Assembly: GCA_008632985.1 (NCBI GenBank)
Contig: QPGO01000032.1
Span: 245,330-309,329 of the forward strand
Direction of reading: 5' to 3'
Length of the DNA stretch: 64,000 nucleotides
Source of the DNA: Psammoneis japonica
Lineage: Eukaryota
The stretch's first letter is position 1, and every line of letters starts with the position of its first letter. Shown here in pieces: positions 1 through 50,997 of the stretch. The notes beneath the pieces were generated by a model. The model saw only the letters and a program-made list of their open reading frames with translations, ran no database searches and was not told the DNA's origin. A program made the translations under genes and the position numbers.

Positions 1-201
1 ATTGTGCAAGACAGCCGTGCCCAGATGCAGAGCACAATTGCTGCACTCAAGCTGTTTGGCCAAAATCATCCATTGGAGATGATTTTCACTGACAAGACAG
101 GAGCAGACAAACTCTTCCTGCTGCAAGAGGCTCTGCTGTTGCAGTGGTGCAAAGCCAGGCACAGCCCAGCTGCTTCAGCCCAGCCAAGCAATGATGAACA
201 T

Positions 202-536
202 TGTTGGAGCAAGTTAGATGAGGGTGTCAGAGAACCTGGAAACAGTTGAAGTCTGTGGATGTTTGTCTCCTGATGTGGCTGCCCGTCTGATGACGATGTG
301 TTCTTTGTCATTGCACTGTCGTCCCCAAAATGAAGCATTCTCACTCTTTGTGGTGAATCATCTGGTCTGTCAACTGTTTTCATTGGTGCTGGGAAGCACC
401 TGTTAAAACCAAATCCTTTTGGTGTGTGAAGTTACGTTGAATGATCTTCCAGGCAAAGAACCACAGCCGCACAAGCAGTGTGTGTGTCAAGAGTGGAGGA
501 AGCTTTGTTTGCCACCATTGACATGTTGGTTCAACA
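202..536 (+). repeat. 5' LTR of copia element 1
   Basis: Starts TGTTGGAGCAAGTTAG, ends TTGGTTCAACA; direct repeat of 6588-6933. Confidence 0.92.
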
Positions 537-1532
537 TTTGCTCCAAAGAGTTGTGAGCGTGTAAGAGACAGCTCACCATACGAAGTCTACATTCTCTCAA
601 AGAAATGAGCAGCCTGCACGATGAGTGGCAGAGGAGCAAGCAATCCGCGCAAGAAAGGCCAAGACCAAAAGTGTGGCCAAGGCAGTGGAAACAAGAACCA
701 CAAGTCTTCTGGATCAAAGCAGAAGACACACAGCAACAGGAGCTTTAACCCTGAAATAAATTCCATCCATCAATGATGAACAGCAACTCTTGCAACCCAA
801 CGTTTGAAGATGTGAACAAGACGAAGATTGTGCATTGCATCCAGAAAGAGCACACACAAAAAGAAAGTGCTTGGCACTGTCACTTGAAGACATGAAGTGT
901 CAAGACTTCTTGGGTGAAGAACCAACCTTGAAGGTGTCCAACGAAGCAAAGGGCTCACCAGAAGCAGAGCAAGAGAACAGACAGTTCGAATGTGAGCACA
1001 AGGCTGAACTTGGAGATCGCCAATGCAAGACAAAACAGCTCAAGGAGAACAAGAACAAGGCACTTGCAATGATTCTCAATGACTGCTGCACGAAATTAAT
1101 GAGGCAGAGAGTGCAAGCAGATCCAACCTGCAAGGCAATCAGGGACAATCCTGTTGAGCTGCAGCGTTCAAGGCCAGCAACATGGGGCCACACATGCTCA
1201 AACTGAGCAAGGAGTTCTTCGAGAACGTCCAATGGCTGCAAGAAGAAGAGTGACACACAAGTCTGAATGTGACAAAGATGAGGAAGTCAAGGCAGAAGAT
1301 GCCAAAACCCAGCAGTGAGTCAGGGGCCGTGATTCCATCTGCCAAAGAAAGCGCCAAGAAGGGCTGCACAAAACAGGAGATGTTGCAAGCAAAAGAGGCA
1401 CCGAGATTCTGTTGTGAAGCCAGCATCCCAAGCATGTGGGATTGCAAACATTTCTTGTGTTCTAATCAGGTGAAGAACTTGACCATTGCACCAGATGATG
1501 CTGATTGAATGGCGGCCATTTGGGGTCCACCA

Positions 1533-1935
1533 GACGTGTTCCAGCTCTAGGTGGGACCTCGTACCACTGAACTGTGACATAATTATTTTTTATCATCCGT
1601 CGCATGTTTCGCACGTACATTTCTACGTGTTCTCTATTATAAAAAATTGTTCCACACTGCCTGTTTTGCGAAGCCAAAGGCTTTCTGTTACTGCATCTGC
1701 ACTTATGTCAATAAAAATGCGCTGGGTATATTCTTTAATGTCTAAAGAATATACCCGGGCATGCTGTAAAGAATGTACTTCAAGTGTGGAGGAGGAGATG
1801 CGTTCGCAAAATTGCCTCTTTTTCTGTTGGCGATCATTCATATATTCATTGCTTAATAATTTTACTACGGAGCTCGCACGTAGAATTCTACGGGCCCAAT
1901 GTCACAAAAAGTCCCACCTAGGACTGGAACCCGTC
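1533..1935. mobile_element. Non-autonomous TIR element (MITE) nested in the copia pol region
   Basis: TIRs GACGTGTTCCAGCTCTAGGTGGGAC / GTCCCACCTAGGACTGGAACCCGTC. 4-bp TSD ACCA (1529-1532, 1936-1939). Removing it restores the in-frame copia peptide IWGPPEDVIKGKT. Interior is AT-rich with normal TpA/CpG. Confidence 0.9.
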
Positions 1936-4900
1936 ACCAGAGGATGTGATTAAAGGAAAGACCAAGGGTGCTCACCATTCCCACGGGTGGAACGATGTTG
2001 TTGCTTTGCCATCTGAACTTTGCAAAAGGCAGAGCAATGGAATGACTCTGGGCATCAACATCATGGAGGTTTGTGGAGTCAAGCTCCTGCACTCCAGCAA
2101 CAAGACTGCCAAGCGCCAAGCAAGTGTGAAGCTGAAGTCCAAGAAGCACATCGATGTCAACGACACACTGGACATGACACTGTGACAACACAACAAGGCA
2201 CTCTTCAAGATGGATTTCATCAAGTGCAATTCCAAGTTCAAGGAAATGTCATCTGAGGTTGCAGATGGCATGAGCATTGAACTCATTGCTGTCAACACAC
2301 AAGACCATGTTCCTGAGGTGGAGCGCAGCATCCAAACCATCAAGGAACAAACTCATGCCATGGTGCACCATGCACCGCACAAGGCAATGCCCAAGCTCAT
2401 GTGAGAGCATGTGGCAATCAAGAGTGCCATGACGTTGAACATGTGCCCTCAAAAGAGGACACTCAGCTCATGTGCAAGCATTTGGCAATCAAGAGTGCCA
2501 TGATGTCAAACATGTGCCCACAAAAGGAGGGCATTTCAGATGTCTGCAGTCCACACACCATTGTGCAACAACAAAATCTCGACTGCACTGAACATTTTGA
2601 ATTTTGCATTTGGAGAGTTTGCACTCTCACATGTTGAGAATCATCCCACCAATGCCATGGAGATGCGCGGGGTTGACAGCATCTGCCTGCACCCACAGTT
2701 TGATGCCGCTGACAAAGGGGGTCACTGCACCACAAATTTGCACATGGGCAAGCTTTTGAATCCCCGTGAGTGCGCTGCAGTTCCACTGACCAACACCCAC
2801 ATTCGGGCAGTCAAAAAGATAGCCTCTCATCAAGGCATCAAAGAATTCAAGTGCACTGGTTGACATGGCGACAATCTTTGTGACATCGATTGGACTGCAG
2901 GAGTGGAAGGCAGCAACAGCAACAACAACAGTGACAGTGAAGATGACTCTGATGACAAACAAAAGAACAAGCTGACAAAATTTTAGCAGGAAATGAGCAC
3001 AGTTGCACTCAACATCAAGAAGATGAAGATGAGGAGAAAGAAGAATCCAATGAAATGGGACATGAAGAACAATCAGAACCTGCTGAGATCAGAGGTTGAA
3101 TGACCAGATCGGGACGAAGCTGCTGCAACACTGTGCCAAAGGACACACAAGAAGAAAATTCTCTTTGCAGGAGTGGCAGCCACAGAACAAGAGGAGCGCA
3201 AGCAAAGGAAACTCAAACACTGCCATCACCCAAGAACAAATGTCAATCCCAATCTAGAGGATGACATGGAATGCAACTGCAAGGTTGGACTCATCACAGC
3301 ATTCTTCATGTGCAAGTGCAATGACAGAGCAAGAGCAGGACAAGAGATCTCACTCGGACAACAGCACCTGCTGCACAAAGGCCCAAAGTTGTTTGGCCAG
3401 AGGGGACATGATGCCTCAGAAAAGAAAACAAAACAACTGCATGATCAAGAGTGTGTTTCCAACCAGTGTCAGTGAAAGACATGACTCCGCAAGAGAGAGC
3501 CAAGGCAATGGTGGCCCAGATGTTCCTGATGGAGAAGCACGATGGATGCACAAAAGGGCAAATGGTGCACAACGGGAAACCATCACAAGAGTGGCTGGAC
3601 AAGGATGAGTCAGCCAGCCCAACAGCATCACTGGAAGGAATCATGATGACTGCAGTGATGGACACGAATGAAGGATGCAACATTGTGAGCACAGATGTTC
3701 CAAATGCATTTGTGCAGACAGAAGTTCCGGAGCCAGAGAAAGGCAAAGACCAGATTGTGATGAAGATTGCAGGTTTGTTGGTGGACATGTTGGCAAACAT
3801 TGATCCCAACCTGCATGAACCGCACGTGGTCCTAGAGAGAGGAAAGAGAGTCCTCTGTGCACAAGTGGCAAGAGCCATCTGCGGCATGTTGGTCGCGGCT
3901 CTGCTGTGACACAAGAAGTTCCGAAAGGACTTGGAGAGGGTCAGGTTTGAGCTCAACCCATGTGACTCTGCTGTGGTGCAAGAAGCTCCAAAAGGACTCA
4001 GAGAGGGCCAGGTTTGAGCTCAACACATGTGACCCATGCGTTGCCAACTGCATTGTCAATGGAAAGCAGCGTGCAGTGTGATTCCATGTGGATGACCTGT
4101 TGTCGAGTCACATGAATCCCAAAGCAAATGACAAGTTTCTCAAGTGGTCAAACAGAGAGTGCGGGAGCCATGGTGAGGTTGTGGCAACAAGAGGAAAGAA
4201 ACATGACTGCCTTGGCATGATCCTGGATTTCACCGACAAAGGAAAGCCAAGGGTGGACATGAGAAAGTGCACAGGATCAACGATTGATGATTTCCTGGAA
4301 AAGATCAAGAGCACAGATTTTGCAATGATGCCTGCAGGGGAGAACCCATTTGAGATGGGCGGCACAAGACCGTCCGTAGAGAAAGCACAAATGTTCCACA
4401 TGTGGGTGGCCAAAGGATTGTTTGCATCCAAGAGAGGCCGGATGGACATGCACCCTGCAACATCAGCGCCATGTGCGCAAATGAGGGAACCCACAGACAA
4501 AGACTGGACAAAGTCAGTCCAAAGTCTCAAGCATTTGAATCGAACAAGGAATGAAGTGTCGACACCAAGCGCCAAGAATCTCCGAGTGATAAAGTGGTGC
4601 TTGGACACATCATTTGCAGTGCATCCAGATTTCAAGAGCCACACCAGAGCAGCAACGACAATGGGCGATGGAGCAATGCAAGCCATGTTGAGAAGACAGA
4701 AGCTCAAAACACAAAGCAGCACAGAAGCTGAGCTGGTCGGAGTTGACGATGCAATGACTGTGATCCCATGGACAAAGCTGTTTGTGGAACACCAAGGACA
4801 TCCTGTTGACAAGAACACACTGTGCCAGGACAACAAGAGCTTGATCTTGTTGGAGACCAATGGTCGTCAAAGTGCCGGCAAATGGTCAAGGGCACTCAAC

Positions 4901-5114
4901 ACAAGACATTTCTTTGTGTGCGATCAAGTCAAGAAGGGCAATCTGACCATTGAATGCTGCCCTGCAGATGCAATGATTGGGGATTTTATGACCAAGCCAT
5001 TGCAAGGCGAGAAGTTGTGCAAATTTAAATGAGCCGTCATGGGGTGCCAGACCCAACAGCAACAGCAGTGGGCTCCTGTTTTGTGACATCAGACAAGAAC
5101 TCTGACGCACATGG

Positions 5115-6575
5115 GTGAAAGAACCCTGCAACCTGGAGAATGACAAATGTGCAATCTTCTCCCAGAACAACACGGTGCAAGCAACACCAAGCACACAAGC
5201 AACCATGGATGGCAGCGAAGCTGGAGGTTTCAATGGAAATGTGGCAGTGGCCACAGCTCACACATTTGATGAACGCACGTGCTGTGAGCATGTCACCTTC
5301 AACGAGTGCAACAAGGTGCCAGGCAGATGGCCCAAGAATTGTTTGCTCAAGATCGCGAAGATGTTCAAGACACATGTCCGATGCAAGGATTTGTTCATTT
5401 GCAGAGAAAAGTTGGTTGTGGACAGCCAGCCCACAGATTGGTGGAATGGAAACAAGATCTTGGCATTTGAGCGGCATGCTGAGCAAGCGCACAGAAGAGT
5501 GCAAGACCTGCAAGGTTTTTTGCACAGAAGGTTGTGTCCTGCCTTTGACCCAAACAGGAGACAAGAACTTGAAAAAGGAAGACTGCCATTGCTGAACCCT
5601 GTTCTGGCAAGAGACACACTGGATTACACACAGCTTGCAGTGGACCTGGAACACAGGCACAGGCACAACTCTGATGACATGAGAGCGGCATGGCAAGAAA
5701 GATGCTGTGCAAGGCTTGAAGCGATGGTGACTGTGTTCGAAATGTGCCAGACATGGACACCACTGATGCAGGAACATGTGTTCTCTGCAACCCCAATGAT
5801 CTCCATCCATGACAAAATGGAGACCATCACAGACAAGATGAGGTGGCTGAGCGTTGTGGTGCACACCCGTGAGTCCCATTGGAAATTCCTGGTGAAGAGG
5901 CCAGAAACTTGCAACAAGGCAAGGCCGTTGTTTGCTCAGGGGCAACGGAACCCTGCAAAATTGGCCTTTGACAGGTTGGACATTGACCACATGGCAAAGG
6001 TGTCATGGCTGCAAGGTGTGCCAACATGTGGCATGGACCAACTCGGGACATGTGGCGGACTAATGTGTCCAGTTCACAGCCATGCTGCCGAGCATCCAGA
6101 TTGTCATGAGCTTGTCAGAGACAAGAACAGAGCCATGTTTGATGCATTGAAACCACCAATGTTCTTCAGAAGGACAATCAAATTTGTGTCCAATGTGCAA
6201 AAGCATCACTGGGTTGCGCACGCGGTGGACTTTCTCACATTGACTCCAAACACCGCGCACCAGTGGATCCGAGATCGAATCAAACAATTGAACAACCAAA
6301 ACAACATGCTGAGTGACGTGCAGCAAGAGTTGGTTAGACAAGATTTTACAATGATGTTCGTCAACTGTGTGAAAGGCATTGCCAATGCATTTGATGACAT
6401 GCAGCACTGCTCATGCGATGAAGAAGACACGCGGCATTTTGCCGAAGTGGCCAACATTGAGAGAGAACCTCATGATGTTCTCTGTGACGCATGTGCAAGG
6501 TGGAATGATTTCCCTCAAGGAGATGTTCCAACCTGTGTTGTGGCCCAAGAAAAATTGAACAAACAATTGGAGTGA
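5115..6575 (+). pseudogene. Extra ORF between pol and the 3' LTR of the copia element, function unknown
   Basis: 486-codon open frame inside the element, with only one Tyr visible. Related sequence lies at the same position in copia element 2 (~55850-56850). Confidence 0.6.
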
Positions 6576-6587
6576 GCGGCAGGAGTG

Positions 6588-6933
6588 TGTCGGAGCAAGT
6601 TAGACGAGGGTGTTGGAGAACCCGGAAACAGCTGAAGTCTGTGCACATTTGTCTCCTGACATGGCCCATCTGATGACAATGTGTTCTTTGTCATTGCACT
6701 GTCATCCCCAAAATGAAGTGTTCTCACTCTTCAGAGTGAGTCATCTGGTGTGTCAACTGTTGTCATCACTGCTGGGAAGCATCTGTTAAAACCAAATCTC
6801 CCAGTGTGCGAAGTTGTGCTGAACAATCTTCCGGGCAAAACCACAGCCGCACAAGCAGCCAGGATGTGCACATCAAGAGCGGAGGAAGCTTTGTGAGATT
6901 CCCTTTTGCCACCATTGACACGTTGGTTCAACA
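6588..6933 (+). repeat. 3' LTR of copia element 1
   Basis: Starts TGTCGGAGCAAGTTAG after the PPT, ends TTGGTTCAACA, followed by the TSD AACGT. Confidence 0.92.
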
Positions 6934-7987
6934 AACGTCACCAGAGAGTGCCGCCAACTCTCTCTGCACACACCTGTCTTTGAGAGCGGTGCCAAGACAC
7001 AGACGCAGCTGTGCTGGTGCTGTGCACTGCAAGACACTGCAGCACAAAGACCAGAGTGCAGGGAAACAGCTGGGCTGGACTGTGAATGACCAACAGCAAA
7101 AAGCTCATGGGGCTGGCACAACTCAGCTTGTGGGCCTCTCCAAAGGCAAATGGTGCCGCCAAGTGCTCGACAACTGGGCTGTGCAGGGGCAAAAGACAAA
7201 ATCCTGCTGCACCGCCAAGAGCTCTTTGGAACCTCAAAAACTTGTTGAGGAAGTGAGGGCAGCACAAGGCGATGGCTGCTCCAGCAGCTGGCTGCGGAGG
7301 CTGAAATCAAGCTCAAAATGTGCTGCCAAGTCAAGTTTTTCTGCAGCCATGATGTCTGCAGAAGCTGAGAGCTGCCGCCACAACACCTGCGCTGGAGAGT
7401 CTGAGCAGCACTCATGCTGTTGGACTCCAAAGCAGACAGCGAGGTTCCTGGCAAGCTGCTTTTCTTCCCCACACTTTCCTTCAACAAGTCATGAGAGTTG
7501 CGGCTTTTACTTTCAACTGCATCGGACGATGTGTTCGTCGACAATCCTGACTCTGACAGCGGACAGTTGGTTGAGGCAAGTTTGATTTGCTGATTGAATC
7601 TATGAATGACCAATGACCGCCCTAACGTCACCTATTTATAGCACCTTCAGTCAGTGTGTACGAGAAGTTCGCTCTCTAGCAATGCTTGCCTTATTTGTAA
7701 AATAGTCCTGAAGTCCATTTCGTCGATCCCGATTTTTCAATGACCGCTGCTGGGCAATATGGTACGACGTACGCCGATTGAGCTTTTTGCGGCTTCATTC
7801 AGTCACTTCTTACCGATGCCTTCTTCCCATCAGCAAATATAATTTCTACTCTCTACTCTAATGTAGAGAGTAGAGAGGCTCGGAGTCGGAACAAAAATAC
7901 TGGCTCGTAGCCTAGGTGGCGAACCGTCGGCAAACTTTGTATAGGGATGAAAATCTACCGTAGATCCAGCCTTGTTTAAAAAGAACG

Positions 7988-8572
7988 ATGATTACATTCT
8001 CTCCAGACTTTGACAGTAGCGCGTGCCTCCCAGCTCTGTCCACCTTGAGTCGACTCAGTCTTGCCACGCCAACAAAAACAGCAATAAAGACAGGGGCCGC
8101 GCACGTTCACGAGAAGAAGCGCAATCTTCTAAGTTCAAAATCGAGAGACAACGTATTGCAACAACCAAGTCCCTGTCATCACATTCGAGGCTCCGAACAT
8201 GAGCGTCACAAAACGACAAGCACTTCAAGCCTCCCATCTGATCTACCGAAGCCTGTTCGAAAAATGCGCACCAACCACACAATTGCCTGTACCCGTCGCG
8301 TTCGTTTTGCCGAGCCCCTCACAGATACAGTCATCATTTATCCAAGCATTGATGAGAAGCTGCTGACACCAGAAAGGCTGGCACGGAACAAGAAAGGCAA
8401 ATGGCCAGGCTTGGAGAACGAGATTGCAAGAATCCATCGATCGATCGAGCTTGAGAAAATAACAAGGAAGAACACGCATTTACGAGATTTACTCGTGGAT
8501 ATTAGCGTGCCAGAGCTACGAACTACTCTGCATGGCATGCGCAAGAGACTAGAAAGTATCAAGAAGCCGTAG
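7988..8572 (+). CDS. Hypothetical protein, 194 aa
   Basis: ATG-initiated ORF in normal-composition DNA; contains RRVRFAE (RVxF-like) and a helical C-terminus. Confidence 0.6.
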   Translation: MITFSPDFDSSACLPALSTLSRLSLATPTKTAIKTGAAHVHEKKRNLLSSKSRDNVLQQPSPCHHIRGSEHERHKTTSTSSLPSDLPKPVRKMRTNHTIACTRRVRFAEPLTDTVIIYPSIDEKLLTPERLARNKKGKWPGLENEIARIHRSIELEKITRKNTHLRDLLVDISVPELRTTLHGMRKRLESIKKP

Positions 8573-9116
8573 TCCAGACTCCCTTACTTCTCCTCTCGAA
8601 CTGCCATGATTGAACAAGTCTTCCCACTCCTTCGAGCAAGCACCATGTGGTAGCAAAGTCATGCAAAGGCATGCGTAGTCCACAAACAAAAGTATATAAT
8701 ATAAGAGTTTTAGCTCCTGTCCTGTGCAAAAGTGTGAAAATGTGGAATGATCAAGATGCTCAACGAATTGGAATATGATAGATCGAGATTGAGAAAATAA
8801 CTAGGAAGAACACGCATTTACGAGATTTACTCGTGGATTTTTAGCGTGCCAGAGCTACGAACTACAGTGCATGGCAGGCGCAAGAGACTAGAAAGTATCA
8901 AGAATCCGTAGCCCAGACTCCATTACTTCTCCTCTCGAACTGCCATGATTGAACAAGTCTTCCCACTCCTTCGAGTTAGCACCATGTGGTAGCAAAGTCA
9001 TGCAAAGGCATGCGTAGTCCACAAAAACAAAGTACATATAAGAGTTTTAGCTCCTGACCTGTGCAAAAGTGTGAAAATGTGGAATGATTAAGATGCTCCA
9101 CGAATTGGAATATGAT
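8443..9116 (+). repeat. Tandem duplication of ~337 bp (3' end of CDS plus 3' flank)
   Basis: 8443-8779 is repeated at 8780-9116 with high identity. Confidence 0.92.
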
Positions 9117-9566: not shown

Positions 9567-10368
9567 ATGACCTTTTCGAAGAAGAATGAGCAGGACAGCA
9601 TCCCAAGTTACCTTTGCTGTCCGCTAACTCTTGACGTAATGATTGATCCAGTGCTTGATCGAGAAGGAAATTCGTTTGAAAGAAGCGCGATTGTGGCGTG
9701 GTTGCAACATGAAAGGATCTCCCCAATCTCTAGACAGCCTCTCAATGAAGCATCCCTTATCCCAAACATTGCCCTGCGACAAACCATTCAACAATACATG
9801 GGTAAGACCCCCCCGGTGCTACTGTCTATCTTTTACTTCTAAAACGACTTAAAGTTTCTCTTTTCCCACGAAAGGCACCTCATGGTCAGACAAACAAAAA
9901 GAAATAGGCAGACATCGATGGAGGTTTCCGGATGAAAATAGTCAGGAGCTCGTTCATACTTCCAGCAAGCTACGAAGAATCGATGGATTTTTGCAAGACA
10001 TTGGGCGCGCCGTCTCAAAGGATCTCCGTCTGAATAAATCGGGTCTCTGTGCATTTAGATATCAAGATTTTACAGTTGTGGTGGAAGTTCCAGAATTGAC
10101 CGATTCATTCTACATATATACTACCGAGACACAGCCTTCTGCTACGCTCGAACTAAAGGACAAACTGTTGGAAATGAATCATTTGCAGCTCAAAACGCGC
10201 GGAGGCTGTCTCTCCATCACAAAGACGAAGGACAACAAGTCGGACTTAACCTTCTCCTTCTCTGATCGAGCCTTTGAAATCAGTTCAACCGACTTCCGAA
10301 ACATTCTCGAGAATTTTATTGATGCGGCTGTTGCAATTAGAGCTTCTATCTTTAGTCAGTTTGTCTAA
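9567..10368 (+). CDS. U-box E3 ligase-like protein fused to a CesT/Tir-chaperone-like domain (2 exons, intron 9802-9874)
   Basis: U-box motif IPSYLCCPLTLDVMIDPV...SFERSAI...SPISRQPL...LIPNIALR. The GT-AG intron joins in frame to FLQDIG...LNKSGLCAF...LLEMNHLQ...GGCLSI...FRNILENFID. Confidence 0.85.
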
Positions 10369-15584: not shown

Positions 15585-16590
15585 TAGGCCCTGGCCCAAT
15601 GCGCACTCCCAAACCCCAAAATGCGCACCTTTTTTTGGCACTTTGCGCAGTACGTACAATTCTACGTGTCCCTGGTACTGGACGACGGCAAGACACACGA
15701 CAATCCAATTGACAAAGGAGGCATCAAAAAGCACAGAGTTCAACCGCCCTGCATTCATCGCGAATTTCAAAGAGGAGCTGAAGATGTACAAGGAGAAGAT
15801 TGACAAAATAGAAGATGACCATTGGACTACTCTTGAAGGATCAGATGAGTGTGACACCATGCTTGCATTGAAAAAGCAGGAAGAAGCTGGAGAGGAGCGT
15901 GATCCAAGGAACCTTGAAGGACACATGGACCGACTGGCTTGGAAAGAAGATGATGCAGAGGTTGCAAGGAGGGTTTGGGAATGGTGGCATGTTCACCATG
16001 AGATGCATTTAGCCATGTCTGAAGCTGCACGTCTGGTGGTCCTCATGCAACTTTCCAGTGTTCTTCCGTTGAGCGAGTTTTTTCTCAGCTCAAGTGCACT
16101 GTTGAGACAGCTCCACAGCAAAACACACTGCATGATGCCATTTTGTTGCATCTCTTTTCTCGTTTGCACAGGGACATGATGTCAATCAAGACTGTCAGTG
16201 GCACTGCAAGAGAAGCCCAGAGTCGAGAGAGCTCTTTCTCTCAGCTCGAGTGCACTTGCATGGTGTGCAGCTTGCTTTGTTGTGACGTCGTTTTTTTCTC
16301 CTTGGAACAAGGGGTGTGATTTGGTGGCAACACAGTGTAGCAGTAATGTGATTAATACGATGTAGCAGCAATATGATGTGCTAGTAATGTGATGTAGTGG
16401 CAATGTAAAATGTACGTAATCGAGAAGTGGCGAACGCGTGTTGTCACCGTCTTGACCGGTGATGAAGCACGGTTGCACTGAACCTGGTACTGCACCACGT
16501 ACATTCTACGTAGTGCGCACTCTGCGCAAATTGCGCATTCTGCTCACAGAAAATCCCCAGTTTGCGCACTGCGCATTGGGCCTGAGCCTA
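15585..16590 (+). mobile_element. Internally deleted hAT DNA transposon
   Basis: Imperfect TIRs TAGGCCCTGGCCCAATGCGC / GCGCATTGGGCCTGAGCCTA. Perfect 8-bp TSD GATGTTCT (15577-15584, 16591-16598). hAT C-terminal dimerisation remnant VWEWW...SEAARLVVLMQLSS/SVERVFSQLK. Confidence 0.93.
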
Positions 16591-19500
16591 GATGTTCTTT
16601 GTTCGTCGGTTGTTGTTTGAACCCGAATTCCGAACTCGTTGTCGCGAGCTTTTTCGCGCGCAAAACCCAAACGGGGGGCTCGCGGGGGGCTTTGCCGATT
16701 TTATTCGATCTCACAGGCGCGCTCGAAGAATGTGTGTGTGTGTGCTCTTGTGTGTTGGGATGGGGACTCGCACCGATGCTTCGCACCTCTTTTGTTTTTT
16801 TCAATGGTCTGCAAAGAGGTGAGGGGTTGAAGCCTGAGGCGTGAGATCTGTGGTGGTGAAAAGCAAGCATTTCGACACGGGGGTGCGGGAAGTGAGCGCG
16901 CGAACTCCGCTGCTGGCAGCAGCAGCGCGTGCGGCAGCAAATTTGCTGAAAATGAGACAATCTTGCTGGGTTCTTGTGCAAAGCAATGGATTGATCAAGA
17001 GACTCAACAGCTCTTTGAATCACCAAGGCAGGGTTCAACCTCCGTTGCGGTTGAAGCTTTAGAAAGTCCCGCCCCTCATGATCAGCAGGGGTGCGTGGTC
17101 GGAGTTTTGTGGAGTGAAATCAAGTTTCATTGGTGGTGCACATTTTAATTGTCTCTTTCAAGTCTGCTGCATGCCTTGCACACAGGTCCAATGCCACGGG
17201 GAAATGGCCTGGAAACTGGAAACAGCTTCTCTTGCTGTTCAAGCTTTTTCTTCTCAACCTTGATGCACCTTTTCAACACACGACTCTGCTCCAAAGTGAT
17301 TGCCTTTGACTTCTTGGCTCGCTTGCAGATTCTCTCAATTTTTTCCACTTTGCGTCCAATGCAAGTTTCGTTTGTGCAGTTTGGAATTCTAGAAAATCTC
17401 TTTGCAAACTTGGCAAGCAATGAAAGTTTGTGAGACCAGACTGCGACAAGTTCTCACAACACGGGCAAGGGACTTTCTTGGGAGATGAAGCCGCAACAAG
17501 TGAGACAGAAACTCATCCGCAACTGTCGTCCGGACTTGCAGGATTCTTCATTTGTGAAAAGCAGTCCTGTGCTCACCAAGAAAGGCACAGATTTGTGGAC
17601 ATTTTGTTGGGGCTTCTTCAAAGCAATGTTGCAAACACAAGTCTCGGTTGTTGCCATCATCAATGAGCACCGCCTCACAAAGGAAAGTCTGGTCTCATGC
17701 CAGTCCAGCCAGATGTCAATTTTGTGGGGGTAGAGTCATGTCATCAGGGGCTGAGGATTGATGCTGCAATTTTTGGAGGCATTTGTTGCTGCGCCAAGAA
17801 ACAGAAAGAGAAATTGATGGGCATTCTTTCAGTGGATGACGTGTGTCCATTTGCCAACAATGAAAGATGAAAAGTTGGAAACTGTGCACCACTTGCAAAA
17901 CCTGCAACAGGGACACTCCACCCTGCAGCTGGCTCATTGATGATCTTGAACATGTGCTCAGAGAAGCCAAGCCAGAAAGTTGAGAGGAGACCTGGGTTGT
18001 GAGGGGAGCAAGCAAAAGGGCTGCATGTTGGGCTGTTTGAGTCTCTCCGGATGCTTCAACACTCTGCAGCACACCTTTCAGCTGCACCTTGTGGAAAAGC
18101 CCAGGGAAGGAGTGATGTGCCTGGTCAAACCAGAGTTGGCTGCAATGTTCCTTCTGGATGAGCCTTTCTTGAGCACTGCACAGCAAGCAGCAACTCTGCG
18201 CCCCTGGGTGCAGCAATGCAGAGCCAGGGTTGTGTGACCGTTTGGCAGATGGCAGGTTGATGCAAGCAGCACAAGTGGTTGGAAAGGCTGTTTGCTGCTC
18301 CAAAGGTGGAGACCATGCACTCATCATGGCCACTGGCAAGCTGCAGAGCTGCTTTCTTTAAAGAAAAACCCTGCAAGTTCAGACAACAGTTGCAGGCTTG
18401 CAGTGGGGTGCATTTTGTGCACAGCATCAGCAAAGATGAAAAGGCTGTTGTCTCATGAGCAAGGTTGTGGGTCTGTGACAAAATCATTTTTCATGAAAAG
18501 ATGCACTCACACACTTTGACATTTTGCACAAAAAGACCAGTTCATTTCATCCATTCCCATGCAAACCGGTGCGCAATGCTGTCACTTTGATGTCTTTTCT
18601 TGCACCCATGTGGGATGCTGCCATTTCAACCACCACAATCCCACTGGCTTCTCTCACACCATGTGATGCAGAGCCAGCCATTCCAAGCTGTGCAGCAGCA
18701 CAGACACTGGGTCCAGCTTTCTTGCAATGCCAGGTCTTGACTGTCTTGCAGGACCACCACAGTGAACTTCAGAACACAGGACTTTGACAGCAAGTCTCAA
18801 CACAAAAAAAAATGTCAATCTTGGCCTGGCCTGGCACTTGTGAGTGTGGAGAATAAACCAGCATCATCATCTTCCCATTTGTTGATTGAGAGCACCTGGT
18901 GTCAATCGGAGAGGGCAGGACATTTGGTGCACCTCACAGGCAAAAATTGGTTGCCCTTGCTGCTGCAATGCTCATTCTTGTGTTGACAAAGCTGCAAACT
19001 TGCAAACATGGTTTTTGCCATTTTTTGTTGGCAAGCCATGCTGGCAACATGCACAGGGTTGCCTTGGCCTCTTTGCCAAGCAGCCTGTTGCATGACACCC
19101 CACAAAGGTGTGTAAAATGATGATGTTGCTCAAGGCAAGGCTTGAAACACTTGTGTTTTTTCTCTTTTTTGTGGCCCAGCAGAGAGCCTGTTGTGAAAAC
19201 CAGGATGTGTGCAACTTGGCATGTCTGTGCCTGCAACTTTGACACTCTGTGACAATGTTGGCCTATCATTCCCACACTGGCCATGGACCAAAACATCTCT
19301 GTGGTTGCCATCTCTTGATTTGTGTGAGTTTGCAGTTGTGCTTGGCAAACCATTGGATTGACTCTTGTGTTTGGACTTGTTCCTGAGACATGGCCAGGGC
19401 TGACAACAGGTTTGTCATGCAATGAAAAGGGCCATGTTGTCTTTGCCAACAAGTCACTGAGCTCAGCATCATGAATCTTGTTGTGCCATGTTCTTTGTCT

Positions 19501-19850
19501 GTCACATTGTGTTGAACCCAAATTCGTTGCTGGCACAAGTTTTTCTTGAGTGTGTGCACACTTTGTGTGGAATGGGGCCTCACTTTAATGCCCTGCACCT
19601 CTTTTTTTTCAAAGGTCTGCAAAGATGTGAGGGGTTGAAACCTGAGGCCGGCACAAGATTTGTGGCAGCAAAAAGCAAAAAATTCAACAAAGGGGCACAA
19701 GGCAGCACAGCAGAGAAGTGAGCACAGGCTTCTCTGCAAGCATTTGTTGGCAGCTTCTGCCAAAAACTGAGACAGAACCTCAATGGGTTGTGCAAAGCAG
19801 TGGACTGATCAAGAGACTCAGCATCTCTTTGAATCAGCGGGCAGCTCTCT
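16591..19850. repeat. Degenerate repeat block with a duplicated segment (16591-17030 similar to 19488-19840)
   Basis: Shared anchors GGTCTGCAAAGA.GTGAGGGGTTGAA.CCTGAGGC and GATCAAGAGACTCA.CA.CTCTTTGAATCA; TpA-depleted; coding identity not recognised. Confidence 0.65.
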
Positions 19851-19923
19851 GGGTGCAGGGGTGAACATCTTGAACCCAGGAGCAGCAAATGGAGGACACT
19901 CCCTCCTCCTTTCCCTGCCCACC

Positions 19924-20155
19924 GGCCTGTTCCAGCTCCAGGTGCTCCGCGCGGGTTCGATTCCCATCGTTTGGAATCCAAACCCGTTTTTTGCCAAATC
20001 GAAGGGTGAGTGTACACTTTGCATGCATTTTCGGGTGTACACTCACCTTTCGATTTTCGAAACGATCAAAATTGAAGGAGTTAATTGTGCTGAACTGCAC
20101 AGAAAATCGGCCTCTCGCGTGATGAAAAGCAGAGCACCTGGAGCTGGAACAGGCC
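19924..20155. mobile_element. MITE with 27-bp TIRs and an internal 22-bp hairpin
   Basis: TIR GGCCTGTTCCAGCTCCAGGTGCTCCGC matches the reverse complement of 20129-20155 at 26/27. 4-bp TSD CACC. Internal inverted repeat 19996-20017 / 20035-20056 matches at 21/22. Confidence 0.88.
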
Positions 20156-21049
20156 CACCACATTCTCCCCCTTTTTGTTTGACAACATCTGTGCCTCCAC
20201 TTTGGCTGCTGTGACTCTTCACAAGGATCCTCTTGTGCCAAACTTTGCTCATCATGGCATCAAAATCAAATCACGCTGTGTGTCACTCACTTTTCCATGT
20301 GCCATTTTGGCCCAAACACCAAGACTGAGCAGGGCATTTGCACTGCATTTTTCCACAATCTCCTTGCACAATGACAAAGCACATGATGGGAAAGTCTGCA
20401 CACAGGTGCAAGCAACAAGTCTGTGTGCATGCATGTGCTGGTTGAGGGGGGTTCAAGGAGCCAGGCCATGTGGTGTTTTGGGGAGCTGGCAGCAATCTTC
20501 CACAACTCTGTCTTCTTCCTTTGCAAATGAGCAGCCACAGTCTGTCAGTTGTGCAGAGTGAATTTTTCACTGCTCCTCCTCATTGTTGGCATCAAGAAGG
20601 GTTTGCTCAAATGTGAGCCATTGGAGCAAATTTTTGCAATGAAATTTTTGATTGTGCAAGTGTCAAACTGCGCAGCTTGCATGAGAAAAGTTTTTTGTGC
20701 CACACCAGCTTTGATTTGTTTTGCCTGGAGATTTTCTACACACCAAATGTGAAATTTTGTTTGGGTTCATTTGCCTCATGCCATTGAATTTAATTCAGCC
20801 TCTTGTGTCCAAAACAAAAAATTCTTCTTTGACCTTCATGTTGTTGATGTCAACAACAAATCTGTTTGTGCCAAAAACACATCCAAGCGCAGCAACAATG
20901 ATGCATCACAAAGCAACTGGAGCAGAGGAGCTCTGGACAAAAACACATGTGTGCCCAGAAACCACACTCAGAAATGTCATCATTGTCAAGCTCCTCATCA
21001 GCACAGTCAAAAATGAAGGGTGAAAGCATTTCTTGACAAACCTCCGGCT

Positions 21050-24000
21050 CTCTGGCTGCATGACACATGATTTCATCATGTCCAAGAATGAAGAATGAAG
21101 TGTGCTTGCAAAGTTAAGCCATGTGGTTGTTGCTTGTTTCAAAAGCAGCTGTGAAGGCACTGCCTCCTGCAGCAACATCCAAAAACACTCACAAACAAAG
21201 CAGCAGCTGTGGCGGCAATGCCATGGAGGCAATGTTGAAGGAGGATCTTTCTCAACAACTCTTCCACCATTTTCATTGCTCACAAAAAAAGCTCAAACAG
21301 AAGCTGTCAACAGCACCCAAGGTCATCAATGTTCTGCTCAATGTCGACAGTGGCTGAGCAGGAAAGACACAGCCTCACACAAAACAGCACTGCTGCAGTT
21401 GAAAAAAAAGTGTTGGTTTTTGCCACTGTGTGAAAGGTGGTGGTTGGGTCAAGACAAGAAAATGTTGCTGGTGTCACCTCATTTCAAAAAGATTGATGTG
21501 CCCCATGTGCATTCTTCATGTGAGCTGCCACCAGATGCTTTGTCATCTCACCAACACCAGTGCCCAACTTTGTGGCTCCAGTGTCCTCCAAAGGGTTGAA
21601 GTTCTCATTCTTGACAATGCAAGTGTCATGCCAAATCATCAAGTTTGCACCTCAAGCAGTCAATGCTTGGCTCATGTCAAGTCACACAGCTGCTGCCATT
21701 TGCAACAAGTGAGCACACAATCAAAGTCCCCAGCTCCAAACAAGGGGACACTTTAAAAGACACACAAGAGAAAACTCACAATTTTTTGCACACAGCACGC
21801 AGTGGCTGGCATGCACTCTGCTTGCACACAATTCACAGAGAGAAAGCAATGCAAAAAGGAGATCACTCAACTGCCCAACAGAGCAGGCTGATCAACCCAC
21901 CCACACCCCCACACACTTTTTTTTTGTCTGAAGAAGTGCGCATGCACGCAGCTCAGTCATGGTTCACAAACAGGTCACTGTCTCTCTGCACCCATTTCAC
22001 ATGATGCAAACGACAGCAACAACATGGAAACACATGCACTGGAGGCTGTTCAAGTCCATGTTCACTCCAGAAAGCCCCTGTGTTTTGTGCACCACACATC
22101 TATGGCCCAGCCTTCATGGCTGGTGGCCAATCACATCCCACCAGTCTCACCTCATCCCTTGACAAATGAAGCCCACAACAAAGTGAAGAACAACCAACCT
22201 TCTCTTGTCATGACTGCATGACAAGAATTGCAGCCAAAGCCAAGTGTCATGGAGAACACCCCCAAAGAACCACATCTCTGGTGCGACTCCTCCACTGATG
22301 GTCAGATTCTGCAGCACTGCCAGTCATGGATCACGCAATTGGATCGTGCATTTCTGGCATTGTCAGGCATCAATGTCAATGGGCTCAATGAGGCTGGGGG
22401 GAATTTTTGCAATGAATTGGTGGTCACCCCACAAAGAAAAGCTGCAACCCAGTTTTTGGCCCACTGCTGCACAAGCTGGCACATGGTGGGTGCGTGGGTG
22501 CTGCGTCCGGCGCATGCTGTGGTGTGCATGCTTCACATGCTGGCGCAGAAGCTCACAGCCCACCCTTTCCAGACAAAATGTGCTGCCCCCCTCTGCTCCC
22601 AAGCACAGGCAGTTGCTTCCTGCCTTCTTCTTTGCCTGTGTCTCCGCTGCAGGGCATTTCCAGCATCACAAAAATGTGCAACAAACTTTTCAACAATGAC
22701 ATCTCCCAACAGAAAATTCTGACATTTCTCTGGGGATGTGCATTTTTTTAAATGTCTCTGAGCCATCTCCAGTTTTTGAAAACTTGAGCAATTTTGTGAT
22801 CTCTGGAAGAGGCTCCAAGATGTCAAATGAAACATGAAGAGCACTGCAGAGGTGCCACTCAGTGCCAACAATGTGCGCTGTGTCTGTTCTTGGCATTCTT
22901 GCATGCCAGCAACATGCTTTTGGTCTGGCGTGCTGACAAGAAGCTCATGCTCTGAGCAATTGAGAACAACTTGTTGCTGACTTGTGCTTGGATTTTTTGC
23001 CCAGCTTGATGGAGCAAATGGAGCAAAATGTTTGGCAGTCTAGCTGCTCTGTGCAACAGGCTCTAAATTGTGCCAAGAACAATCGTTGCAACCAAGTTTG
23101 AATTTTTTGGTCTGCCACACACCAAGGGAGTGTTCTCTTCAGCTGCCACCAGCATTTTCAGCCAGCCACAGTGTCTCACAAAAACAACAAATTGTTTTGC
23201 GCATGTGATGTTTGCATCTTGCACACTGCTGCACCACACTGTGTTGTCCTCAAGAGTTGCGCTTGTTTCTGTCAATTTTGTGGTCCTGTGTTTTGACACT
23301 AAATGGTTTCAAGTTTGTGCATTGGTGGGAGCCTGTGTTGATTGCATGCCCATTGTCTGAAGCCCACAAAGCCTCCATTGAGAATCAAAGAATTCCTTCC
23401 ACTGCCTTTGGCTGGCTGCACTTTGATGACAGGCATGTTGCAGCAACATTGCTGCCTGTCAGTTGGCCACAAGTGAGATGCAAGAATGTCTGGTGTGTGC
23501 ACATGTGGAGCACATTTGAATGAACATGCCATGCCTCATTTGCTGCCAATGCTGTGTTGAATGTGTCACTCTGGCTGGGTGCAAAAAAGACACGGCAACC
23601 TTTTGTTTGTCAAACCTCCAGCTGGATGTGTGCTGTGTGATTTCATCACATGTCAAAAGATGCATCTTGTGAAACAAAGTCATGCAGTTGTCTCTTTCAA
23701 AAGAAGCTGCAAAGGCATTGACTGCAGCAACATCCAAGCAAGCACATGAGCCCACGGCAGCAGCATCATGGAAACAACATTGCAGCCAGCCAGCAAAGCT
23801 TCCTCACAAAATCTGTGCCAAGAAACAACTTTTCCCAACAACTCTTCAACTGCTTTTTTTCAAAAAAGAAAGGCTCAAACAGAAACTGACAAAAGTGGCC
23901 AGCTCATTGATGTCAAGCTTGAGGATGGTGCCAGCAGCGGCTGAGCAGGGGAGCAAGTCTCATGGCCGTTGCACCAAAAACAGCATCGCACAAAAAACAG

Positions 24001-25000
24001 TTGGTTTTTGCTGCTGCACAAAATTTGATGGTTGGGCAAAGACAATCAAAGTTTGCTGGTCTGGCTCCTTGTTCCAAGATTGGTGTGCCTTTCTTATTTT
24101 TGGCGTGAGCTGCCGGCGGACACTGTGTGCTGTCTCAGCAAAATGACAGCGCCCACTCTCATGAGACTCCAGTGTTCATCAAAGTCTTCAAATTCTCATT
24201 CTTGACAATGAACAACTGCTGAAATTGGCAAGCTCACACAACAATCATCTGGTGCATCAGGTTGCACACATGGCTGCTGCCATGAATTGCAACAAGCAAC
24301 AAGCACACACAGGCACATGCACATCAACCAACAAAAGCTCTGCTTGCAAGGGATGTCTCAAAAGACATGAGAGAAAATTCACAATTTTTGCAACAAGTGG
24401 CAGCCAGCATGTGCTTTGAACACTTTGTGAACTGTGCAGAGAAGGTGCAGCACAAAAGTGGGGTCACTCAGCTGGCTGACACAGCGGGCTGACATGAAAA
24501 AGCCCCGTGCTGTTTTGCCTCAACAAGAGCAGCAGCACAGCTCAGAAACAGTCCACAGATGTGTTTTGCTCTCTCTGCATCCATTTCACATGATGAAGAG
24601 AACAGTGATACATGCAAGCACATGCGCCAGAGGCCACTCAAGCCCGCATGCATGCTTGCTCTCTACAATCATTTGCACTCTGTGTGCTGACTTGCTTGTG
24701 CTGCTCCTGTTGCTTCTGCTGCCAAGCGGCAAACCCCACCAGCCCACCACTCTCACCTTGTCCTTGACTAACAAAGCCCACAACAAAGCAAAGAACAGTC
24801 AACCTTCTCTTGTTGTGATTGCGAAACAAGAATTACAACCGAAGCCAAGTGTCACATAGAGACAAAACACCCGAAGAACAACAACACGCTTTTGACACGA
24901 CCTGACTGCGATGGTCAGATTCGGGATTGATTCGGGCATAAATCACGACTGGGGCTGCGGGACGCGGATCGCGCGATCGGATCGTGCTTTTTGCTTTTTC
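21050..25000. repeat. Diverged tandem duplication with ~2.6 kb period (21050-22360 similar to 23600-25000), probably decayed gene or TE copies
   Basis: Collinear anchors CTGCAGCAACATCCAA, GCTCAAACAGAA, TTCTCATTCTTGACAATG, AAGCCCACAACAAAG...CAACCTTCTCTTGT and GATGGTCAGATTC. Confidence 0.75.
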
Positions 25001-28290: not shown

Positions 28291-29265
28291 ATGGCCGACA
28301 CAAAAAACAAAGGAAAGCGTACGGCTTCTGAGATGGAGGCGCCCTTCGGCATCTTGAATGGCAGCATCAGCGGATCAACCACCGATATGAACGGCATCCG
28401 GTCTAAAAAATGCCGACAAGAACCGATTCCGAGTCACTTCTGCTGCCCGCTTACGCTGGAGGTCATGGTGGACCCAGTCCTGGATCGCGAAGGCAACACA
28501 TTTGAACGAAGTGCAGTAGCCCAATGGTTGGCAAAAGAACGAATCTCTCCAATTTCCAGGCAGCCACTTAATGAAGGATCTCTTATCCCTAATATTGCAC
28601 TTCGACACGCCATTCAGCAGCACATGGGTAAGTTTGGTTTTGAACAAGATGTCGCCTCATAAAGTTTCTCCTTACGACTCGCAGTCTCAAAATAGTTATA
28701 TTCTTTCCTTTTTTCAGGTGCTGAATGGACAGCGAAACAGGAAGCCGCATTCCAAAAAGTCGTCCGGCAAAGATGAATCTTGGAAATTCCCAAATGAAAG
28801 TAAATCTCCCCATAAGTCCGAGAAAGTGAAACGAGTCGACGGATTTCTCAAGGATATTTCAGCAAGTATCGGAAAGGATATTTCGCTCAACAATTTAGGA
28901 ATCTCTGCCTTTACTATGAAGATTTCATGGTTGTCGTTGAAGTTCCAGAGCGCACCGATTCCTTTTACGTCTACACGTCCAAGGTTGTGCCGTACTTATC
29001 TCCCGAAAGCAAGGACAAGATACTCGAGCTAAACCATCTGCAACAGAGAACGAGGGGAGGATGCCTCTCAGTTATCAAGACAGAAAACAACGAATCCGAA
29101 ATTACCTTCTCCTTCACCGATCGCGTCTTTGAAATCAATTCTGCTGACTTTCGGAACATCCTGGAGAATTTCATTGATACCGCGGTAATACTTCGAACGC
29201 TGATTCTCAACCCAAACAGCGATAATGTCAGCGACAGACCTCCTCCGTCGCCAAAGCAGCTCTGA
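28291..29265 (+). CDS. U-box plus CesT-like protein, paralog of 9567-10368 (intron 28628-28717; two apparent frameshifts)
   Basis: IPSHFCCPLTLEVMVDPV U-box with the same intron position. Exon 2 needs frame changes at ~28750 and ~28912, so it is a pseudogene or carries assembly indels. Confidence 0.78.
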
Positions 29266-43378: not shown

Positions 43379-44635
43379 TCAATGTGTTCGTTTCATGTAA
43401 CCAATCCGGTTCTCCACTTCCCAGTCTACATGCTCATTCATCCAGGAAATGTATTCAGGATCAAACTCGTTCTTCTTCCTTGGCTCTGATGGAGCATAGG
43501 GCGTGCACTTGGCTTGAATGCCAGTCTTTTCTTCAATCTCCTTGATGAGCTTGGCGGTTCCCTGTTGAACCTGATCCTCATAACGCAACAGCATGAAATC
43601 GGAAACACTTTCGTAATCGGCAATCTCCAAAAAGTTCAAATTCTTGTCGCGTCTCAAATCCACAATCGAGTCGTACGGTTGTCCCGGTCGATCTCGACGC
43701 AATTCGTATCGAGCAGGCCACCACCCTCTCTTGTTCAAATTCCGCGGCGACTTGCATGGAAAAATCTCGTGTGACTTGAATCCCTGCAAACAAGACGAGC
43801 GTTTCTTGTTGGATACGCGACCCCCGTTTTCTGCGTCCACCATGGCTTGTGGCACGGTCCACGGTCTCGTGACAAATTCCTTCCAATCCAAGTCAACATG
43901 ATTGGGAGAGTGGTGGGGCTTTTTCCTCATTGCCTCGACCCACGCGTACGGATCACGAAATTGTGCAATCACAAGAATATTCTTTTTGTCTGGAGGATCG
44001 TACTGAAACCAATGCTTCCAACGCGCAAAACTGCTCTTCATCTGTGACAGAAGTAGCCCGAGAATTGAAAATAGTTAGTTGCCTATCGAATCCTCACCGA
44101 AAAAACAGCAAATTCAAAATTGTTGTGTACTTACAAAAATATCGTCACCAAAGCATTCTGACAAGTGTTCAAACATCCAATTGGTACCCGAGTGTCGCTC
44201 TCCAAGAAATCGAATCTCTGTCGGATAAGTCTTGGTCTCACTGTTGTTGTTGGCAGCAAGTGATGAGTCTTGTTGCTGTTCTGATATCTGCTCCCGGAGA
44301 GTGCGTGAAGGATGAGTATCCGATATTGTGTTTGGAGGAACGACAACGGTTATGGGAGGCCGAAGTGCAATTGTACACAAGGCAATCAGGATGAGGATTT
44401 GTGTAGAAAGAATCTTATAGTTCCATCGTCTCTTTTGATCCGTGTAGAGTGGTAAAGGAGGATACTCATGGTGCGACGTCTTTGGAAAAGTTTTGCAAGG
44501 TGAGGACGACGGCGACCTTCTTCTAAATTCGGGAAACAACCTTCTTGGTGCTGGAAGCTGCGACGGTGACGTGGGCACAGAGAGACATTCATTGTCCTCC
44601 TCAAGGACGGGAAAGATTGGAGGGGTGTTGTTCAT
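43379..44635 (-). CDS. Type II membrane sulfotransferase-like (P-loop) protein (intron ~44042-44130)
   Basis: TM segment, 5'-PSB-like GERHSGTNW, WKHWFQ, 3'-PB-like QFRDPYAWVEAM, LLRYED. Confidence 0.8.
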
Positions 44636-50900: not shown

Positions 50901-50990
50901 CAGCAAGAAGTGAAACTGTGGCTGCAGGCACTCTCAATGGTGCTCCTGCAGCAATCTAAATTTGAGTGCAGCATCTCCTGCAGCTCTTCC
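44990..50990. mobile_element. Block of heavily decayed, TpA/CpG-depleted repeat remnants (families not identified)
   Basis: Composition matches the recognised dead TEs; no intact motif recognised. Includes a ~57-60 bp tandem duplication at ~50086-50200. Confidence 0.5.
48843..49610 (-). pseudogene. Hypermutated partial copy of the sulfotransferase-like gene (equivalent to ~43670-44440), intron retained
   Basis: Collinear alignment; translates as KHWFQHNPLDKKSALAVAQFHDPCAWVKAMSEKPHHSPNHIDLDWKEF versus KHWFQYDPPDKKNILVIAQFRDPYAWVEAMRKKPHHSPNHVDLDWKEF. Confidence 0.92.
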
Positions 50991-50997
50991 ACATTGG

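Follow-up and report, generated by a model that had tools for sequence, protein, structure and literature searches.

Probable post-integration loss of TpA and CpG on both DNA strands in a degenerate Ty1/copia-order retrotransposon and its flanks in the diatom Psammoneis japonica

We analyzed a stretch of 64,000 nucleotides from the diatom Psammoneis japonica (assembly GCA_008632985.1, contig QPGO01000032.1, positions 245,330 to 309,329; hereafter the window). Near its start lies a dead long terminal repeat (LTR) retrotransposon, in one of several blocks of the window that are nearly devoid of the dinucleotide TpA and poor in CpG. The element is delimited by a direct LTR pair with TG...CA ends and by a 5-bp target site duplication (TSD) identical at four of five positions, and a purine-rich stretch is found immediately upstream of position 6588 (Table 1). 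Its pol region was aligned in two parts with a homologous polyprotein, P0002. In the upstream part a DHVPEVERSIQTIKE stretch aligns with DHVPEAERNNRTIKER of the homologue consensus, a motif that we take to be that of integrase and that is the basis for the label of this part. With the order taken from the P0002 alignment and integrase recognized by this motif, integrase would lie upstream of reverse transcriptase (RT), which is the Ty1/copia order. The open reading frame (ORF) at 4082-5032 matched copia polyproteins (E = 9e-112, 56% identity); RVT_2 (PF07727) is present in 119 of its 120 listed homologues, one of which is named from the diatom Cylindrotheca fusiformis. Pfam searches gave no match for the two RT frames of the element (E up to 10), for nine frames of the focal block, or for 28 frames of the other depleted blocks and two host ORFs; in P0002, RVT_2 was located at residues 1145-1387 with a score of only 2.3e-10 despite this protein being intact. 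A reading of the sequence FHVDD as a mutated YVDD was rejected, His being native at this place in the homologue consensus.

Table 1. Positions of the features discussed, in coordinates of the window
Feature	Position	Strand	Remarks
5' flank of the insertion	1-201		TA/CG-depleted; continues past the window start
5' TSD copy, 5 bp	197-201		AACAT; CA where the 3' copy has CG
LTR retrotransposon, copia order, dead	202-6933		LTR pair, TSD and pol homology
5' LTR, 335 bp	202-536	+	ends TGTTG...CAACA
Miniature inverted-repeat transposable element (MITE)-like non-autonomous DNA transposon, 400 bp	1535-1934		nested in the element; terminal inverted repeats (TIRs) of ~24 bp
pol, protease/integrase-side part	1925-3454	+	tblastn, homologue P0002 residues 625-1117; stops and one frame-breaking duplication
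71-bp tandem duplication	2394-2455 / 2465-2526	+	
pol, RT-RNase H part	3448-5044	+	tblastn, P0002 residues 1115-1625
67-bp tandem duplication in RT	3899-3965 / 3966-4032	+	covers LLWYKK...NPYD
Open frame, 489 aa	5106-6575	+	predicted frame only; between RNase H/pol and 3' LTR
3' LTR, 346 bp	6588-6933	+	ends TGTTG...CAACA
3' TSD copy	6934-6938		AACGT
3' flank	6939-7500		depleted; composition normal from about 7500-7600
Second depleted block	about 16.5-24.75 kb (16500-24750)		TA/CG-poor; single-copy at 85% likeness
Second small TIR transposon	about 19924-20155		inside a depleted block; CpG kept
Ubiquitin-activating enzyme ORF, 1,253 aa	38300-42058		best named matches Ditylum, Thalassiosira, Odontella (62-66%) vs ~52% for dinoflagellates
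Paralogue of normal composition	43677-44304	+	ancestral proxy; 700 bp outside the block
Third depleted block	about 45-57.2 kb (45000-57200)		contains the related copia element
Hypermutated copy of host sequence	48850-49497	+	73.7% identical to 43677-44304; 4 kb inside the depleted block
Second copia element	51240-55878		65-72% nucleotide identity to the focal element; more depleted still (TA o/e 0.03, CG 0.10)
Fourth depleted block	from 63.4 kb onward		

Dinucleotide content was expressed as the ratio of observed to expected counts (o/e). In 2-kb bins, the first 7.5 kb of the window have a TA o/e of 0.03-0.04 and a CG o/e of 0.26-0.35, with TG at ~2.0 and CA at ~1.7. Over all transposon blocks the values are 0.02-0.05 for TA, 0.06-0.35 for CG and 1.6-2.4 for TG/CA, and the remaining window is mostly at 0.45-0.70 for TA and 0.8-1.08 for CG. 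The edges of the blocks are sharp at the 250-bp scale. Both sides of the insertion are affected: the 5' flank contains no TA, against about nine expected from the density of normal regions (4.3 per 100 bp), and there is none between 6787 and 7508. The second copia element has a 5' LTR end that resembles 6810-6928; its 3' LTR was looked for within the window and not detected, and a scan of the window for further LTR pairs found none beyond that of the focal element.

To set a baseline for the family, we used 79 related metagenome loci, measured over the match; the peptide patterns of the scan favour unmutated copies, so that these loci do not constitute a survey. Their TA o/e ranges from 0.34 to 1.11 (median 0.63) and their CG o/e from 0.15 to 1.36 (median 0.81), none having a TA o/e below 0.34, compared to TA/CG values of 0.05/0.32 and 0.03/0.10 in the two copia elements of the window. 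Judged from these relatives, TA poverty does not appear to be native to the family. Three of the metagenome copia loci (L014, L062 and L010) combine a CG o/e of 0.15-0.18 with a TA o/e of 0.55-0.78; as they have lost CpG with TA at normal levels, the two losses seem separable and we read CpG decay as a second process.

The direction of the changes was obtained from homologues, at 466 codon positions with at least 70% agreement among at least 30 homologues. None of the 22 conserved Tyr codons is still TAY in the element: 13 read TGY (Cys), eight CAY (His) and one TTT (Phe). The 32 conserved Arg positions now hold 11 Gln, two His, three stops, one Cys, one Trp, three other residues and 11 Arg (seven AGR, four CGN). 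Among the 156 changed residues, 43 are accounted for by one TA to TG/CA step and 38 by one CG to TG/CA step. The 43 TpA-derived changes ended as TG in 22 cases and as CA in 21, and they form 26 runs along the element (22.5 expected). Both strands are thus affected, as a preliminary description of this DNA had claimed.

A copy of host sequence in the third depleted block allowed the same comparison in DNA foreign to the element. With its paralogue of normal composition as a proxy for the ancestor, none of 14 TA sites is kept in the copy (six became TG, five CA and three other) and only one of 34 CG sites is kept (15 became CA, 14 TG and four other). TG and CA themselves were retained at 42 of 48 and 30 of 40 sites, respectively, and outside TA and CG sites the pair differs by 0.098 transitions and 0.041 transversions per site. 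Because the copy inside the block is hypermutated and the paralogue 700 bp outside is untouched, targeting is by domain and not by duplication.

The timing of the changes was assessed in segments that had been duplicated within the element. The preliminary description had noted a tandem duplication of about 68 bp in RT; the duplication is real, its period being 67 bp and its copies lying 2-3 nt away from where they had been placed. Within it, a single ancestral TAC codon had been proposed to have been resolved in opposite ways, and this was indeed observed, with CAC at codon 3910 and TGC at its twin 3977, a position that is Tyr in 119 of 120 homologues. Likewise, codon 3931 is TTG and its twin 3998 TCA (Leu in 119/120 homologues), and codon 2435 of the 71-bp duplication is TTG with TCA at 2506 (Leu in 54/67); codons 3961 and 4028 are both TGT (Tyr in 120/120). 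All three polarisable CA/TG doubles between duplicated segments therefore fall on conserved Tyr or Leu (TAC, TTA) with opposite outcomes, and by this alignment all three derive from TA. The twins at TA-derived codons differ in three cases and agree in one (two if a weak Tyr position, 29/67, is included), and the 3:1 split agrees with the prediction for changes that arose independently once the segments had been duplicated. Both tandem duplications disrupt the reading frame. Additional information came from the k-mer contigs (Logan) of a public sequencing run, X1, whose platform is not on record, which was judged from its contig depths to be of short-read type and which is possibly the assembly's own sample. 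One X1 contig joins 2411 to 2488 with five other letters between them, for a net 71 bp less; it is probably a copy that lacks the 71-bp duplication, which would be specific to the focal copy or to a subset. Just past the 5' LTR, a paralogous X1 contig differs from the focal copy within 30 letters by three CA/TG doubles, one CG single and a pair of TA singles that run opposite ways, so that copies of the family were mutated independently.

Alignment of the two LTRs gave 329 columns, 44 of them unequal, and five additional gap runs. The 44 differences group into 34 events: 11 singles between CG and TG/CA, ten adjacent CA/TG doubles, one TA/TG single, seven other transitions and five transversions. 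The contrasts that had been quoted were all found, namely AAGTTACGTT/AAGTTGTGCT at 429-438 and 6811-6820, TGAAGCATTC/TGAAGTGTTC at 331-340 and 6714-6723, and GATGTTT/CACATTT at 259-265 and 6645-6651, and the TSD copies are unequal by one CA/CG difference, as had also been stated. When 44 substitutions were placed at random with the observed transition/transversion ratio, CA/TG doubles numbered 0.98 on average and none of 10,000 simulations reached the ten observed. As LTRs are identical at insertion, the 34 events, along with the differences between duplicated segments, uphold the earlier claim of mutation after integration. The expectation that LTR dating would be inflated holds as well: total divergence is 13.4%, but falls to 3.6% (12 events) if CG/TA-type sites are set aside and to 1.5% for the five transversions.

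Loss of TA depends on the flanking nucleotides. For each of the ten strand-symmetric NTAN classes, survival was calculated as TA density over 26.8 kb of depleted sequence relative to TA density over 33.9 kb of normal sequence, the baseline being host composition rather than the ancestral element. Survival is highest in YTAR (TTAA 0.50, CTAA 0.18, CTAG 0.13), lies at 0.038-0.067 in contexts with only one of these flanks, and is lowest in RTAY (ATAC 0.012, ATAT 0, GTAC 0), a three-tier order that by our own arithmetic is one of 4,200 possible arrangements. Survival of CG spans 0.63 (GCGC) to 0.11 (TCGA). In the polarised codons, a purine lies 5' of all eight Tyr to His changes, and the four sites with a 5' pyrimidine all became Cys, a trend that is not significant. 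Changes of Leu codons from CTA/TTA to CCA/TCA occur with a 5' pyrimidine too, which runs counter to a per-strand motif in which the A of TAY is edited.

The depleted state was also recovered in X1. Contigs with a word depth of ~58 reproduce the depleted sequence at 16539-19949, with all but eight of 3,411 positions in agreement, and another contig, of depth 58, extends over a block edge (7020-8494). Between this last contig and the window there are nine differences, all of them transitions and all in the depleted 3' flank at 7150-7390 (four singles between CG and TG/CA, one CA/TG double taking up two of the nine positions, and three other transitions), with none at 7500-8494; the differences at 7150-7390 are mostly of CpG type and too few to build on. 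Contigs of two other runs, X2 and X3, covered none of the depleted blocks except the MITE-like transposon and have no bearing on expression. Separately, an X2 contig matches 12357-15551 in five pieces with gaps of ~80-380 bp, which has the look of a spliced transcript though the run is labelled 'DNA?'.

We consider it likely that the locus is a degenerate Ty1/copia-order element in a diatom nuclear genome whose DNA, with at least 0.5 kb of flank, underwent after integration two transition processes on both strands, each ending in TG or CA. The first would convert TpA to TpG or CpA (A·T to G·C) and be near saturation; it would act on a domain of chromatin scale with sharp edges, most strongly at RTAY and most weakly at YTAR, and it carries the signature of the TpA-specific hypermutation that foreign DNA integrated in Bigelowiella natans has been seen to undergo de novo. 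The second would convert CpG to TpG or CpA, be about 70-90% complete and most simply correspond to deamination of 5-methylcytosine in a CG-methylated transposon; the CpG loss would be accounted for by the CG methylation that diatom LTR elements are described to carry (PMC2806351, PMC9998398). Because TA is nearer exhaustion than CG in the youngest-looking element, the TpA process appears to be the faster of the two. The data show the direction of change, its symmetry between strands, that it followed the duplications, and its confinement to domains. The cause of the TpA process may be enzymatic, through deamination of DNA adenine or oxidation of thymine to a G-pairing base, and its role may be defence; the two chemistries leave the same footprint and are inseparable by sequence alone.

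Several observations weigh against this reading. In the LTRs, 12 single differences between CG/TA and TG/CA were observed compared to a simulated mean of 16.7, hence no excess, since the LTR sequence is already rich in TG and CA; the LTR signal lies in the doubles rather than in the singles. Moreover, 21 of the 22 differences of the pyrimidine-purine (YpR) type in the noncoding LTRs and TSD are explicable by CpG alone, the sole LTR difference of this type that requires TpA being the site 434/6816 (TA versus TG). A CpG-only model fits the LTRs if the ancestral LTR had ~40 CpGs (our own estimate), which would be unusually CpG-rich. The LTR data on their own do not prove a TpA change after integration, and as CpG alone covers 21 of these 22 differences, the TpA claim rests on the coding duplications and the evidence outside the LTRs. 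There, neither one TA nor one CG step explains 75 of the 156 conserved residues that changed, and some T to C changes occur at sites other than TpA (such as TTC to CTC at 3952/4019 and at 3986). A per-strand reading of the flank rule is not borne out, as both RTAR sites of the paralogue pair that reached TG/CA became TG and not the CA that it predicts, and a third RTAR site became GA. Lastly, two small transposons nested inside depleted blocks keep CpG, the first also TA; the process is therefore not acting now on everything in the domain, or it has stopped.

The points on CpG raise the question of whether decay of a methylated transposon would suffice, with TA poverty native to the family or of unrelated cause. 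Besides the LTR and TSD differences compatible with a CpG ancestor, such decay is in line with the CG methylation described for diatom LTR elements (PMC2806351) and with the three relatives that are low in CG and normal in TA. It would nevertheless leave Tyr codons in place, and none of 22 survives, 21 of them reading CAY or TGY; nor would it account for the 14 TA sites lost without exception in the hypermutated paralogue, for the TA/TG difference at 434/6816, or for the absence of any relative, out of 79, with a TA content as low. We regard this explanation as having next to no chance of being correct. Retroelements pass through RNA, and retrotransposition could have fixed changes made there by A-to-I editing or made by deamination while the RNA was reverse transcribed; ADAR-type enzymes prefer a 5' U, which would give UA to UG (bioRxiv 10.64898/2026.01.13.699255, Discussion). 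It is quite improbable on several grounds: the changes are split evenly between TG and CA with no strand runs, LTRs and duplicated segments each differ between their copies, and the depletion includes flanks outside the TSD and a fragment of host gene. This evidence bears out the argument of the preliminary description against RNA editing fixed by reverse transcription, because it places the change in integrated DNA and on both strands.

Two further explanations concern DNA. Calls made at random as TG or CA at symmetrically modified palindromic dinucleotides (5-methylcytosine at CpG, modified T or A at TpA) would imitate the opposite-direction outcomes, and the depletion could then be an artefact of base calling or assembly. 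The X1 contigs at 16539-19949 and 7020-8494 carry the depleted sequence, though this run could come from the very sample that was assembled, and inside the blocks there are islands of normal composition as well as the two nested transposons that keep CpG; an artefact is in our judgement highly improbable. It is also conceivable that no dedicated editor is involved and that silenced DNA is replicated or repaired with a bias, dependent on chromatin, which drives A·T to G·C at TpA, for instance if T:G were always corrected to C:G. The restriction of the change to domains and its spread into single-copy flank fit such a bias, and in E. coli a comparable depletion, that of CTAG, is attributed to very-short-patch repair. 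On the other side stand a specificity for TpA and its flanks that is unlike that of T:G glycosylases acting in CpG context, the faster loss of TA than of CG, the relatives that keep TA under strong CpG decay, and the situation in B. natans, where the rate is described as raised ~1000-fold and in some lines only (bioRxiv 10.64898/2026.01.13.699255). We hold a repair bias to be unlikely.

Both nested transposons merit description in addition to the depleted element. The first is flanked by a direct 7-bp repeat, CACCAGA, at 1528-1534 and 1935-1941, and an X1 contig connects 1527 to 1935 without it. Its TA and CG content is normal (the 250-bp bins of 1501-2000 hold 31 TA and 21 CG), and its X1 word depth of 72,887, compared to ~58 for single-copy sequence, corresponds to ~1,250-fold. 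The second is related to it through a common TIR core, GTTCCAGCTC.AGGTG; CpG is kept in both and TA was noted as kept only in the first. The 489-aa open frame of the element has neither a Pfam family nor an atlas match, and X1 word depth over it is 169-205 compared to 580-706 over RT; on account of the missing matches and of a copy depth lower than that of pol, it may be an accessory gene of a subfamily.

The origin of the host DNA is indicated by the ubiquitin-activating enzyme ORF and by another host ORF with its closest match in Synedropsis, which identify the host as a diatom. In DNA of normal composition, two tandem copies of a unit of ~338 bp, 93.6% identical, lie at 8439-9116, and the segments 9600-10331 and 28426-29186 are paralogous (70-74% identical). 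TA counts show a ~2-kb periodicity around 28-34 kb.

The presence of a saturated footprint in a diatom suggests that the TpA process is widespread among marine algae, and LTR retrotransposons would be among its targets after integration. The flank rule constrains any candidate enzyme. A simple genome screen is available, for blocks without TA and CG and with TG/CA doubled. In such genomes, dating by LTR divergence, clustering of repeat families and estimates of copy number fail, and mutated transposons carry long false open frames, as TGA is the only stop left.

With respect to known systems, the diatom CoDi elements (Maumus et al. 2009, PMC2806351) share with the focal element the Ty1/copia order, a diatom host and copia polyprotein homologues; the focal copy differs in being dead and in having the extra 489-aa frame, and the likeness is drawn at the level of the copia order. 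Decay of CpG in methylated transposons resembles the present case in that CG becomes TG/CA on both strands and in transposon blocks only, and differs in that it cannot remove TpA. ADAR-type editing, with A to G on the sense strand and identical LTRs, is not matched, as 21 of the 43 events are T to C on the sense strand and the LTRs are not identical (44 unequal columns out of 329). Repeat-induced point mutation (RIP) of fungi is, like the process described here, a transition hypermutation of transposons at the DNA level on both strands that inflates LTR divergence and fills frames with stops. It changes CpA to TpA and enriches TpA, which is the opposite of the TpA o/e of 0.02-0.05 and the CpA/TpG of 1.6-2.4 in the depleted blocks. 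RIP mutates both copies of a duplication; here, unlike in RIP, one paralogue is untouched, as is the MITE-like transposon at ~1,250-fold depth.

The closest likeness is with B. natans, in which Mettrop et al. (bioRxiv 10.64898/2026.01.13.699255) report that 230 of 231 de novo mutations are TpA to TpG/CpA, in regions of integrated giant-virus and virophage DNA, at ~6e-7 per site per generation and in certain lines only. The preprint further lists 324 TpA-depleted coding sequences enriched in RT and DDE domains and proposes an ADAT2-like deaminase. Common to both cases are A·T to G·C changes confined to TpA, giving TpG or CpA on either strand, in foreign-derived regions of the genome only. In the window, TpA to TpG/CpA was found in 21 of 22 Tyr codons, in 43 single-step events and at 11 of 14 paralogue TA sites, and its limitation to regions of integrated DNA is seen in the LTR and duplication differences, the sharp edges and the spared paralogue. 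In contrast to B. natans, where mutations occur almost only at TpA, conversion of CpG to TpG/CpA is massive here (29/34 paralogue sites, 38 events). The diatom host belongs to the Stramenopiles and not to the Rhizaria; what is hit is a domain with an LTR retrotransposon, almost to saturation and with CpG depleted as well, and RTAY is visibly preferred over YTAR. The process was observed de novo in B. natans, whereas in the diatom it is deduced from sequence. CpG, LTR, diatom and sequence context did not turn up in term searches of the main text of the preprint, and a literature search for reports of TpA/CpG hypermutation, RIP-like processes or TpA depletion in diatoms found none, subscription-only papers aside. 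As a tentative idea, diatoms and chlorarachniophytes could have in common a dedicated defence that edits DNA and removes TpA, preferably RTAY, throughout silenced domains of transposons and viruses; such a defence would mirror RIP and be widespread in the SAR group (stramenopiles, alveolates and Rhizaria), perhaps with one deaminase for A at TpA and C at CpG. The B. natans preprint being the only report of TpA hypermutation that we found, we interpret the element as a further instance of that process, in another and remote lineage, superimposed on ordinary CpG decay; what it adds is a diatom host, the co-occurrence of CpG decay and a flank preference by which RTAY is erased and YTAR spared.

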